Positions 50,617-55,019 of a stretch of 64,000 bases of DNA are shown in pieces (positions within the stretch are counted from its first letter, which is position 1; each line of letters begins with the position of its first letter). The translations under genes and the position numbers were made by a program. Source of the stretch: Escherichia coli (GTDB taxonomy: Bacteria; Pseudomonadota; Gammaproteobacteria; Enterobacterales; Enterobacteriaceae); assembly GCF_044647545.1 (NCBI RefSeq), contig NZ_CP172818.1; one strand, written 5' to 3'. Below the pieces are notes generated by a model. That model was not told the origin of the DNA. It searched no databases and saw only the letters and a program-made list of their open reading frames with translations.

Positions 50617-51744
50617 TTACTGCGGATATTCCTGCAATAAATTGTGTAATGCTTCCGCCATCAGCTCACCACGCCAGCCGGAAATCAGCTCCGGCAAATT
50701 GTTCTGCGGTTTCAGTTTCCAGTGCCAGTTCAGCAGTTGGTTGATTTGCCGACGCGATGCCAGCAATTCGGCGCTGATCTTGTGCGTTTCGCTCACGTCA
50801 GTAATCAGCGACTTAATCGCTTTAAACGCTTTACGATAACCCGGCATGTCCATCAGGTTAAGCATCGGCTGCGGTAAGGCCTCTTCCGGCAATGTCTGCG
50901 CTTTTTCCACCAGCGCCAGCAGCGTTTTACCGTGAAAGCGGATTTCGCTACCGGATAAACCCAGGCTGTCCAGTTCGCCTAAACTTCCCGGCATATAACG
51001 CGCTACAGACCACAAATGCTCTTCACGCACGACAAAGTTCACTGCCAGATCGCGCTCCCGAGCCTTGCGCAGTCGCCAATCGGCTAACAGTTGCAGACAG
51101 GCCAGTTGGCGTGTGCGTAACTGCCAGGCATTGGTGATATCACGCCAGGCATCTTCCGGTGCAACGACTTCCTGACGACGCATTTGCATCAGGCGGCATT
51201 CATCCAGCGCCGCAGGTAGCCAGCCGGAGGCCTCCGTTTCTACCATAAGTTTTGCGGTGATCGGTAACAGATACCAGACATCCGCCGCTGCGTATTCACA
51301 CTGACGTTCGGTCAGCGGTCTGGCCAGCCAGTCGGTGCGCGATTCACTCTTGTCCAGCGTAACGCCGGAATACTCTTCCACCATGGAAGCGAAACCCCAT
51401 GACATCGGGCGTCCGCAGAAGGCAGCAAGGATTTGCGTGTCAATCAAGGGTTGTGGTAATTCGCCAAAGACATTGAGGAACACTTCCAGATCTTCACTGC
51501 CTGCATGGAGAAATTTTGTGATGGACGGATCGCGCAGGATCGCTTTCAGTGGTGACCAGTCGGAGATCCCGAGAGGATCAATTAGCGCCAGATGCTCACC
51601 ATCAAAAAGTTGAATTAGACCCAGTTGCGGGTAATAGGTGCGCGTACGAACAAATTCAGTATCCAGGGCTATCGCCGGAAAGGCACGGACGGCTTCACAC
51701 AAAGAAGCCAGCGCATCGTCCGTGGTAATCATTTGGTAATTCAA
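50617..51744 (-). CDS. rnd: ribonuclease D
   Basis: 375 aa; 3'-5' exonuclease DEDDy domain plus HRDC. Confidence 0.95.
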   Translation of the reverse strand: MNYQMITTDDALASLCEAVRAFPAIALDTEFVRTRTYYPQLGLIQLFDGEHLALIDPLGISDWSPLKAILRDPSITKFLHAGSEDLEVFLNVFGELPQPLIDTQILAAFCGRPMSWGFASMVEEYSGVTLDKSESRTDWLARPLTERQCEYAAADVWYLLPITAKLMVETEASGWLPAALDECRLMQMRRQEVVAPEDAWRDITNAWQLRTRQLACLQLLADWRLRKARERDLAVNFVVREEHLWSVARYMPGSLGELDSLGLSGSEIRFHGKTLLALVEKAQTLPEEALPQPMLNLMDMPGYRKAFKAIKSLITDVSETHKISAELLASRRQINQLLNWHWKLKPQNNLPELISGWRGELMAEALHNLLQEYPQ

Positions 51745-51768
51745 ATTGTATTCTCTTTAGTGGGCGTC

Positions 51769-51794
51769 AAAAAAAACGCCGGATTAACCGGCGT
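51769..51794 (-). terminator. rho-independent terminator after fadD
   Basis: Minus strand acgccgg-ttaat-ccggcgt followed by U8. Confidence 0.85.
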
Positions 51795-51855
51795 CTGACG
51801 ACTGACTTAACGCTCAGGCTTTATTGTCCACTTTGCCGCGCGCTTCGTCACGTAA
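51769..51855 (-). ncRNA. sroD: candidate 3'UTR-derived small RNA at the fadD 3' end
   Basis: Recalled that an ~86 nt sRNA named sroD was mapped between rnd and fadD in K-12; 3' end placed at the terminator U-tract, 5' end approximate. Confidence 0.35.
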
Positions 51856-53499
51856 TTCTCGTCGCAAAATTTTTCCGACGTTAGATTTCGGTAACTCATC
51901 ACGAAACTCCACCAGCTTCGGTACTTTGTAGCCCGTGAGCTGACGGCGGCAAAAGGTCACCAGTGACTCTTCGGTAAGCGATGGATCTTTTTTCACTACG
52001 AAGATTTTCACCGCTTCACCACTGGAGCCGGAAGGTACGCCAACAGCCGCGACTTCCTGTACGCCAGGATGCTGCATGACGACATCTTCAATCTCGTTGG
52101 GATAGACGTTAAAACCGGAAACCAGAATCATGTCTTTTTTACGATCGACAATGCGCAGGAATCCTTCTTCATCCATCACCGCGATGTCGCCGGTGTGTAA
52201 CCAGCCATTTTTGATGATTTCATCGGTAGCATCCGGACGCTGCCAGTAACCCAGCATCACCTGCGGTCCTTTGACACAAAGCTCACCTGGTTGACCCGGT
52301 GGTACTTCGTTGTCGTCGTCATCCACCAGTTTGGCTTCCGTCGACGGCACCGGCAAACCGATGCTACCACTATGATAATCAATATCATACGGGTTAACGC
52401 TGACCAGCGGCGCACACTCGGTCAGGCCATAACCTTCCAGCAGATACTGTCCAGTCAGTTTCACCCAACGTTCTGCCACCACTTGCTGAACAGGCATCCC
52501 TCCGCCTGCGGAAAGATGCAGACTGGAGAAATCCAGCTGCTGGAACTCTTTATTGTTCAGCAACGCATTGAACAAGGTGTTAACGCCAGTGATAGCGGTA
52601 AACGGATATTTCGCTAACTCTTTTACCAACCCTGGAATATCGCGCGGGTTAGTGATAAGCAGGTTCTGCCCACCCAGTTCGATAAACAGCAGGCAGTTAA
52701 TGGTCAGGGCAAAAATGTGATACAGCGGCAGCGCCGTCACCACCAGCTCTTTGCCCGGATGCAACAGCGGACCATAGGTCGCGTTAACCTGTTCCAGGTT
52801 CGCCAGCATATTGCGGTGAGTCAGCATCGCGCCTTTCGCCACACCAGTGGTACCGCCGGTGTATTGCAGGAAAGCTAAATCTTCCGGCACCAGTTCGGGT
52901 TTGACGTACTGCATCCGGTAGCCGCTGTGCAGGGCGCTACGAAATGAAATGGCATCTGGCAGATGGTATTTCGGCACCAGACGCTTGATGTATTTAACAA
53001 CGAAATTGACTACCGTGCCTTTTGCCGTAGATAGCTGATCGCCCATACGGGTCAGAATTACGTGCTGAACGGCGGTTTTATCAACCACTTTTTCCAGAGT
53101 GTGGGCAAAGTTAGACACGATAACAATCGCCGATGCGCCGCTATCGTTAAGCTGATGCTCAAGTTCACGCGGGGTATACAACGGGTTAACGTTTACGACA
53201 ATCATCCCGGCACGCAAAATGCCAAACAGCGCCACCGGATATTGCAATAAATTAGGCATCATCAACGCAACGCGATCGCCTTTCTTCAGTCCCAACCCTT
53301 GTTGCAAATAAGCGGCAAACGCGCGACTGCGTTCTTCCAGTTTGCGGAAGGTCATCACCTCCCCCATATTCACAAACGCGGGTTGATCGGCGTAGCGCGC
53401 GACCGACTGCTCAAACATATCTACCAGAGATTGATAACGGTCAGGGTTGATCTCCGTCGGAACGTCCGCGGGATAACGGTTAAGCCAAACCTTCTTCAA
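51814..53499 (-). CDS. fadD: long-chain fatty acyl-CoA synthetase
   Basis: 561 aa from TTG start with SD gaggtgaag; AMP-binding motif [12 protein letters not shown]. Confidence 0.95.
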
Positions 53500-53571
53500 T
53501 TCTTCACCTCTAAAATGCGTGTTCGTCGTCATCGCAACCCCAAATGATATACATGTTGTTAACATAATATT

Positions 53572-53588
53572 AACTCATCATACCAGCT
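53572..53588 (-). promoter_or_regulatory. FadR operator in the fadD promoter region
   Basis: Minus strand reads AGCTGGTATGATGAGTT, matching the FadR operator consensus class. Confidence 0.7.
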
Positions 53589-53657
53589 TGATAATTACCC
53601 AACGAAAAGGTTGCGAAGCGCGTCACTATTTATTTTTATCTTTACCGTAAGAATGCA

Positions 53658-53690
53658 GAAACAGCGGACCAGCCGCTGTTTCTTTTTCTT
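53658..53690 (+). terminator. plus-strand GC hairpin with T-run in the fadD-yeaY intergenic region; no plus-strand gene upstream
   Basis: gaaacagcgg-accag-ccgctgtttc followed by ttttt. Confidence 0.5.
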
Positions 53691-53703
53691 TAAAAACAAG
53701 CAA

Positions 53704-54285
53704 TTATTCAGTTACAACTGTTTGTACTCTCGCGGGGCCGGGATTATACCAGCCCCATCCGCCGTAGCCATAGGGCCAGCCACGACCGCCATAAAACCAT
53801 GGATCAATCGGCTGAGGCGGCATAATCACCTGCTGGGTTAAATGCCAACGTTTGTAACCTGTTGCCTGCATCACCATAAATTTATAGGGCGTGTTGCCGA
53901 TTTTTCCGTCAACCGTACCGGTGATTGGCCCGACAACTGTCACCAGCTGCCCACGGAAATCGACCGGATCAAGAAAACCATTCACATCGGCATAAATGCG
54001 GCCGCGAGAAGGTTCTCCCAGCGTCGGTCTGGCTCCGCTGTCCAGTGGTACGGTGGCAATTTCCAGGCGGGTTTTCCCTTGCTGGTTTTGTACCGCAACC
54101 ACTTTGCCGCCAAAGCGTGCCTCCTGACCAACGTACAGCTGCGGCGCACTCATCACCCGAACTAAATCTTGTTGCGGCGTGGGACTGCTGCCTTTAATGG
54201 CGTCCGGCACAGTAACACAACCGCTGAGCATTAGCGCAAACGTACCTGCCAGTATGCCTTTGATAACATTCTTTTGAACCGCCAT
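53704..54285 (-). CDS. yeaY: Slp-family outer membrane lipoprotein
   Basis: 193 aa; lipobox LSGC. Confidence 0.9.
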
Positions 54286-54323
54286 GATGCGACTCCTTTT
54301 TTCTCAGGGCATACTCTTAAGAT

Positions 54324-55019
54324 TCATTCTTTGCCCGGAAGTTTCTTCCATGCGACGTTGTTACGTAAATAAACCGGTTCGGCATGTTCCACCGCCACCG
54401 TTTTACCCTCGGCAAACATCTGGCAGGCAATCGGCAGCATATCTTCTGCAGCGGGCAGTAACACTTCGCCATCGCACAGGGCCAAACCGCTCTCTTTACC
54501 GAGATCCGGCCAGGCTTGCCAGCCCGTCCCTACCGTCACCCATTCGCCGGAAAGCTGTTGCATCCGTTCATGAACGAGTTCAGGTTTGAGTACGGCTTCG
54601 GTTTCTTCACCGTGCCAGATACCGTTTTCATCACGCTGATATTCGGCCCAGTAAACTTCGCCCATTCGCGCGTCAATGGCTGCCAGCACGCGTGTTGCGC
54701 CGTTTTTGCGCCACGCCCCTTGCGCCATCGTCATTAGCGTGGAGACGCCAATCATCGGTAATTCCGCGCCAAGCGCCAGCCCTTGCGCGATGCCAATACC
54801 AATGCGCACGCCAGTAAAGCTACCGGGGCCGCGCCCGTAAGCCAGAGCATTTATGTCCGTCAGGGAAGTTCCACTGGTGGTCAGGATATCCTGCACCATC
54901 GGTAAGATTCGTTGAGTATGTTCACGAGGGCAAAGCTCAAAATGAGCGTTGACAGTACCGTCGTTCCACAGGGCGACAGAGCAGGCCTCTGTCGCGGTAT
55001 CGATAGCCAGAATTCGCAT
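54324..55019 (-). CDS. tsaB: tRNA t6A37 threonylcarbamoyltransferase subunit
   Basis: 231 aa; starts [17 protein letters not shown]. Confidence 0.95.

Follow-up and report, generated by a model that had tools for sequence, protein, structure and literature searches.

A conserved hairpin in the yeaY-fadD spacer of Escherichia coli is very probably the leaky terminator of the tsaB-yeaY unit and coincides with the distal FadR operator of fadD

A stem-loop between yeaY and fadD in Escherichia coli resembles several described systems. The closest are the E. coli intrinsic terminators that combine an A-tract with an imperfect U-tract. With these it shares a GC-cored stem-loop positioned 20 nt past a stop codon, a U-rich tail, an A-tract able to pair with that tail, RNA ends 3-7 nt past the stem and partial read-through. 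It departs from typical intrinsic terminators in that the Escherichia U-tract (GCAUUCUU) is unusually interrupted, and the opposite strand therefore looks the better terminator. The second class consists of the FadR operators of the fad and fab regulons, since the same DNA includes a published site, GGCTGGTCCGCTGTTTC, which binds FadR in vitro and from which long-chain acyl-CoA releases the protein. This distal site of fadD, which we take to be the OD2 of the older literature, is unlike other FadR operators in its position, some 100 bp ahead of the start and not over the -10/+1 region, in its poor right half (2/6) and in being embedded, as a whole, in the terminator hairpin. Its left half is conserved only in Escherichia, Salmonella and some members of Citrobacter, Klebsiella and Phytobacter.

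Bidirectional terminators between convergent genes provide a further comparison. They also present a symmetric hairpin with A-rich and U-rich flanks that is predicted to work both ways, but here the genes are in tandem, only one direction has recorded ends and the constraint falls on one strand. Lastly, sroD (RF00370) is a small RNA feature at the fadD locus that likewise ends at an intrinsic terminator. sroD, however, is a recognised family whose 3′ end has been mapped, whereas the hairpin has no counterpart among RNA families and shows no sign of a transcript of its own.

The window, that is the whole stretch of DNA analysed, comprises 64,000 nt of E. coli contig NZ_CP172818.1. A window coordinate equals the NC_000913.3 (K-12 MG1655) coordinate minus 1836247, and this offset recovers the yeaY stop codon at 53704, the fadD TTG start at 53499 and the sroD 3′ end at 51770. 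A 401-bp query around the hairpin is 100% identical to many complete E. coli genomes in which the neighbours are annotated as fadD and yeaY; the element is single-copy and is found in 5425 of 5426 complete E. coli genomes. Both neighbours lie on the minus strand, in tandem and not convergent. The features of the locus are as follows.

53704-54285, minus strand: yeaY coding sequence (b1806, Slp-family lipoprotein), from the ORF list and RefSeq; K-12 1889951-1890532.
53704-53706, minus strand: yeaY stop codon TAA, from the ORF list; yeaY transcripts have their 3′ end at the hairpin.
53684-53691, minus strand: A-tract AAAGAAAA in the yeaY 3′ UTR, adjoining the 5′ side of the stem.
53657-53683, minus strand: hairpin of the probable terminator, with a perfect 11-bp stem and a 5-nt loop; minus-strand RNA AGAAACAGCGG-CUGGU-CCGCUGUUUCU.
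53648-53656, minus strand: interrupted U-rich tail GCAUUCUUA of the probable yeaY terminator, from the sequence and the comparative table.
53650-53654, minus strand: RNA 3′ ends, K-12 1889897, 1889899 and 1889901 (PMC10687069, PMC6131387).
53658-53674, minus strand: distal FadR operator GGCTGGTCCGCTGTTTC, matched to an EMSA probe; about -98/-99 to -114/-115.
53612-53626, minus strand: putative core GTGACGCGCTTCGCA of the fadD class I CRP site, centred about -60; position inferred from the CRP consensus and from the published mention of such a site (PMC3460868).
53572-53588, minus strand: proximal FadR operator AGCTGGTATGATGAGTT, EMSA probe 'fadD-FadR2'; about -12/-13 to -28/-29.
53559-53560, minus strand: start of fadD transcription, 60 bp ahead of the start codon (PMC3460868); SMRT-Cappable-seq TSS 1889807 = 53560.
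K-12 1888061-1889746, minus strand: fadD, from RefSeq; the TTG start at window 53499 is the same as in the K-12 annotation.
51770-51855, minus strand: sroD small RNA (Rfam RF00370, 115 bits), from the Rfam search; at the fadD 3′ end.

The published term-seq 3′ ends of sroD, K-12 1888017/1888020, correspond to window 51770-51773.

On the plus strand 53657-53683 reads AGAAACAGCGG-ACCAG-CCGCTGTTTCT and is followed by TTTTCTTTAA, or T5CT3 if the last T of the stem is counted. Six of the 11 base pairs are G-C and the estimated stability is about -16 to -20 kcal/mol. In the window the stem-loop begins 20 nt past the yeaY TAA, and with respect to the fadD start site it occupies about -97 to -124. A 64-kb dinucleotide shuffle is expected to contain about 0.07 perfect stems of at least 11 bp with a loop of 3-8 nt; the hairpin is therefore not a chance feature. 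An initial annotation of this DNA had described a plus-strand terminator with a 10-bp stem. The hairpin and the plus-strand T-run are both real, but the stem is of 11 bp. The same annotation was right to call the minus-strand U-tract poor, as the GCAUUCUUA that follows the stem is interrupted; in E. coli the yeaY-sense tract GCAUUCUU carries 4 U in 8 and fails a simple terminator scan on the minus strand. In the predicted fold the A-tract pairs with the 3′ UUCUU.

Two other stems in the window are recorded here for completeness. At 27371-27398 a hairpin whose 12-bp stem is flanked by A5/T5, AAAAAGAGCGAC-TTCG-GTCGCTCTTTTT, resembles a symmetric, bidirectional terminator, and at 24582-24618 there is a perfect stem of 16 bp (CAAGGTGATTTTCTGT…ACAGAAAATCACCTTG).

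By sequence the plus strand carries a textbook terminator: an 11-bp stem of about -20 kcal/mol with a folding z-score of -4.8, compared to -3.4 for the minus strand, and then UUUUUCUUU, a much better tail than the yeaY-sense one. Read this way, the hairpin would end a short divergent or antisense transcript, or a small RNA, driven from a rightward promoter in or near the fadD regulatory region, which was the leading suggestion of the initial annotation. The predicted stabilities do not help, being about equal between the strands, which stands against the minus-strand assignment as the poor yeaY-sense tract does. A choice of strand by thermodynamic stability was dropped, the alifold value being -16.9 kcal/mol on both. 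As stability does not discriminate, the strand argument drawn from the comparison of genomes is carried solely by the count of G·U against A·C pairs considered below.

Directly mapped RNA ends are on the minus strand and sit 3-7 nt past the stem. The TRS analysis of term-seq and RNAtag-seq data in PMC10687069 gives a minus-strand terminus at 1889897/1889899 as 'primary' for yeaY, with a 55-nt 3′ UTR, and draws exactly this hairpin at -19.8 kcal/mol. In its coordinate-sorted lists the next entries are 1891771 (minus) and 1893783 (plus), with no plus-strand terminus at the hairpin. SMRT-Cappable-seq (PMC6131387) provides full-length capped reads from the TSS at 1891294 to a reverse-strand TTS at 1889901, spanning b1807|b1806 (tsaB-yeaY), and of its TTSs at 18899xx none is on the forward strand. 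At the hairpin neither strand has an end in the curated term-seq lists of PMC7815308, an absence that is uninformative because those lists comprise the strongest ends only. The mapped ends thus go largely against the plus-strand terminator first proposed, with yeaY ends on the minus strand and no ends on the plus strand, an outcome that is read from absence in called lists and not from strand-specific coverage.

The minus-strand starts that feed yeaY in the SMRT-Cappable-seq data are at window 54313 (K-12 1890560), immediately upstream of yeaY, and window 55047 (K-12 1891294), upstream of tsaB.

Termination at the hairpin is incomplete. Of the M9 reads at TTS 1889901 (window 53654), 19 stop at the TTS itself, 3 stop no more than 50 bp beyond it and 16 continue past it (median 1459 nt); in rich medium the corresponding values are 24, 110 and 5 (PMC6131387). 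A read-through unit b1807|b1806|b1805 (tsaB-yeaY-fadD) is recorded in the same data set (PMC6131387). The yeaY gene is a reported member of the sigmaE regulon (PMC2731931). On sigmaE induction yeaY rises 2.8-fold, fadD 2.2-fold and rnd 1.5-fold, the four genes b1807-b1804 being grouped as one unit, and a rise that extends across yeaY, fadD and rnd fits a leaky terminator. Read-through seems condition-dependent, 16 of 38 reads in M9 as opposed to 5 of 139 in rich medium, with the caution that the numbers are small and that long reads carry a length bias.

Taken with the comparative evidence below, we consider it very probable that the minus-strand tsaB-yeaY unit has its intrinsic (Rho-independent) terminator in the stem-loop at 53657-53683. 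RNA polymerase would copy first the A-tract, then the GC-cored hairpin and last the interrupted U-rich tail UGCAUUCUU, with release of the RNA at 53650-53654. Some polymerases would continue into fadD to give the tsaB-yeaY-fadD transcript, and we infer that the weak, interrupted U-tract is the cause of this leakiness. We presume that the mapped ends arise by hairpin-dependent release rather than by exonucleolytic trimming back to the hairpin, though some of them could be exonuclease-trimmed products that the hairpin has stabilised. The conspicuous plus-strand T-run is accounted for as the complement of the terminator's upstream A-tract. The element could, judged by its sequence, also stop polymerases travelling on the plus strand.

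Support for such plus-strand traffic was sought in several ways. A promoter scan found no plus-strand sigma70-like site upstream of the hairpin, the only plus-strand match in 52500-55000 being at 54260, which is downstream, and the SMRT-Cappable-seq TSSs near the locus are all reverse-strand and none forward; the absence of a plus-strand TSS rests on these two sources. An Rfam search of 51500-54500 at permissive E-values returned sroD and noise and nothing at the hairpin, RefSeq annotates no RNA there, and none of the three data sets (TRS, SMRT-Cappable-seq and the curated term-seq lists) has a forward-strand 3′ end at 18899xx. Moreover, the 69 bp between the two FadR operators are already taken up by conserved elements of the fadD promoter. 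Plus-strand small ORFs at 53519-53650 and 53611-53841 were set aside as purely mechanical frames across conserved DNA of the promoter and the terminator. The element could be tied to no promoter, gene or RNA end on the plus strand, and there is no sign of selection on that strand. Together with the substitution pattern, in which the plus-strand RNA acquires A·C mismatches, these results lead us to abandon the divergent transcript of the initial annotation and the small RNA or promoter-associated antisense RNA that it also envisaged. As a plus-strand terminator the element is extremely unlikely, its textbook appearance notwithstanding.

A scan based on YeaY returned 80 Enterobacteriaceae loci. 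In all 77 scanned loci where both genes were located yeaY and fadD are tandem neighbours, and in 73 of the 77 the spacer is 202-208 nt. Adding the window to these 77 gives 78 spacers for comparison. The core CAGCGG-N5-CCGCTG is unchanged in 78 of 78, and the hairpin starts 23-37 nt from the first base of the yeaY stop codon across the 78 loci. The 'AAAG' that precedes the stem in the yeaY sense is at least 90% conserved. Variation is found in the outer stem, with the pairs AGAAAC/GTTTCT, AGAGAC/GTCTCT, AGAAGC/GCTTCT, ACAAAC/GTTTGT and ACAGAC/GTCTGT. Over 42 distinct sequences 98.9% of cells are paired, three outer pairs are changed on both sides and the covariation score is reached by 0 of 500 shuffles. 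In this covariance analysis across Enterobacteriaceae, which had been proposed as a check on the hairpin, the outer stem covaries through three compensatory pairs.

The changes confined to one side of the stem discriminate between the strands. Among 34 distinct hairpins all 13 such changes leave a wobble pair (G·U or U·G) when the RNA is read in the yeaY sense; none does so on the plus strand, where the same 13 are A·C mismatches. Strand-symmetric mutation would give an expectation of 50:50; the count corresponds to an estimated nine or so independent events, which are not strictly independent phylogenetically. Such asymmetry in aligned sequences would indicate selection at the level of the minus-strand RNA, and argues against selection for a palindrome in the DNA.

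In Enterobacter, Lelliottia and relatives the yeaY-sense tail is canonical (GUUUUUUU / GUUUUUUUA / GTTTTTTT), and it is weak in Escherichia, Salmonella and Citrobacter. The plus-strand T-run is reduced to CTTTCC or CTTTTAC in Enterobacter and Citrobacter, a further point against a plus-strand terminator. These observations also bear on whether the element is truly bidirectional and is selected, in addition, to block pervasive antisense-to-fadD transcription from entering yeaY and tsaB. The hairpin is symmetric, with an A-tract on one side and a U-rich tract on the other, Escherichia has a strong predicted termination signal on the plus strand, and Kluyvera and Klebsiella have a long upstream A-run too. 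Such an A-tract is nonetheless a normal part of one-way terminators, and many genera have only a short one. The genes on either side are arranged in tandem and do not converge, the recorded ends are on the minus strand only and the substitutions show no constraint on a plus-strand RNA. We regard dual selection as unlikely. Of the earlier suggestion of a bidirectional terminator for yeaY, the assignment to yeaY stands on the minus-strand ends and the bidirectional part is not borne out.

Two loci have an enlarged spacer. Insertions of 126 bp (L036) and 157 bp (L041) separate the hairpin from the fadD CRP block, and in both the hairpin is still 23-24 nt from the yeaY stop codon. The first, at L036:3088-3422 in the MAG Proteobacteria CTSoil_132, which is Kosakonia-like, places the insertion at about 55-190 of the spacer and contains …CCCCAGTCACTTACTGAAGTAAGCTCCTGGGGATTCAC…; we presume it to be related to the ERIC/IRU repeat, which it resembles. 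The second, at L041:3079-3444 in Intestinirhabdus alba, has the insertion at the same place and a degenerate proximal FadR operator (AACGGGTAGGTTAAGTT). On the sequence of that operator FadR control of fadD may be weakened in Intestinirhabdus alba.

The DNA that encodes the hairpin is at the same time the published distal FadR operator of the fadD promoter, some 100 bp ahead of the start site and with a perfect CTGGTC half-site, a feature overlooked in the initial annotation. The operator covers the 3′ arm minus its last base, the loop and the two loop-adjacent bases of the 5′ arm. The EMSA probe 'fadD-FadR1', GAAACAGCGGCTGGTCCGCTGTTTCTGCATTCT (PMC4259882), is the minus strand of the hairpin letter for letter. 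Two FadR sites 68 bp apart are described in the fadD promoter, and oleoyl-CoA frees FadR from both (PMC3460868); measured in the window their spacing is 69 bp. The promoter also has a class I CRP site (PMC3460868), with which the CRP-like sequence in the window is consistent; that sequence belongs to a stretch between the two operators that hardly varies within the family. Genomic SELEX peaks in the yeaY-fadD spacer have been assigned to the fadD promoter. A 2022 review (PMC9329746) describes a FadR site at -100 as 'surprising' for a repressor and notes that there has been no in vivo test of the site.

The proximal operator was correctly placed at 53572-53588 by the initial annotation, reading AGCTGGTATGATGAGTT on the minus strand. 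In 70 of 78 loci it reads AACTGGTACGCTGAGTT and it keeps CTGGTA in nearly all; being nearly invariant, it implies that FadR specificity has not drifted. With a crude PWM built on five sites the proximal operator scores 13.1 bits, tied best in the window, and the distal operator 6.7 bits, a score equalled or exceeded by 92 of the 17-mers in the window. Against the 17-bp consensus aaCTGGTCnGACC(T/A)Gtt the distal site matches 6/6 in the left half and 2/6 in the right. The suggestion that the distal site is the one of higher affinity was withdrawn, as PMC3460868 and PMC4259882 number the two sites inconsistently. The two papers also seem at odds on which is the better FadR site, one giving 'site 2 >10-fold weaker'.

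Might the palindrome be mainly a protein-binding site in DNA, for FadR at the distal operator or for another dimeric regulator, with the RNA hairpin and the 3′ end as by-products? In EMSA FadR does bind exactly this sequence and comes off it with acyl-CoA, and earlier DNase I footprints are cited in PMC3460868. The geometry does not fit well, however. The operator is centred at 53666 and the hairpin dyad at 53670, 4 bp apart, and FadR therefore does not need the 11-bp inverted repeat. The only half-site of consensus quality, CTGGTC, consists of the loop and one stem base, and the loop is the least conserved part of the hairpin: CTGGT in Escherichia, Salmonella, C. koseri, C. amalonaticus, Klebsiella spallanzanii and Phytobacter, CTCGT in the C. 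freundii group, CTCAG in Enterobacter and CTAGC in Kluyvera. Drift in FadR specificity does not explain this loss, since nearly all of the same genomes hold CTGGTA at the proximal operator. The intermediates restricted to G·U indicate selection on RNA, and the insertions part the hairpin from the promoter and never from yeaY. A primary role as a DNA site is in our judgement very improbable. The conserved operator half, CCGCTGTTTC, appears to be kept for being a stem arm, and the pattern of conservation suggests that in some lineages the distal operator is a recent overlay of a FadR half-site on an older yeaY terminator.

With the element assigned to yeaY termination, a functional link between its two uses deserves mention. 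The leaky terminator would pass transcription driven by sigmaE or from tsaB on to fadD, and FadR bound at the hairpin DNA, or its displacement by polymerases reading through, would tune how much of this transcription enters fadD. The higher read-through in M9 (16/38) than in rich medium (5/139) and the 2.2-fold rise of fadD on sigmaE induction are hints in this direction. Against it, many genera keep the hairpin without the FadR half-site, and ends caused by a FadR roadblock would be expected upstream of the hairpin, near 53690, where none is recorded. We consider such tuning quite unlikely; if it were true, the puzzling FadR site at -100 would have a role and envelope stress would be coupled to fatty-acid activation. 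A roadblock by FadR as the source of the mapped 3′ ends was itself rejected on geometry, because the hairpin can be transcribed only once polymerase is already past the site.

The analysis mainly removes a false lead, in that the spacer between fadD and yeaY hides no plus-strand RNA gene, and it carries the lesson that T-runs alone are insufficient to assign the strand of a terminator. The yeaY terminator and the distal operator are each already in the literature and their coincidence may have gone unremarked. That the 'surprising' FadR site at -100 coincides with the yeaY terminator hairpin is a small point which may be new. Within the family, the FadR half-site is specific to certain lineages, whereas the hairpin is family-wide.
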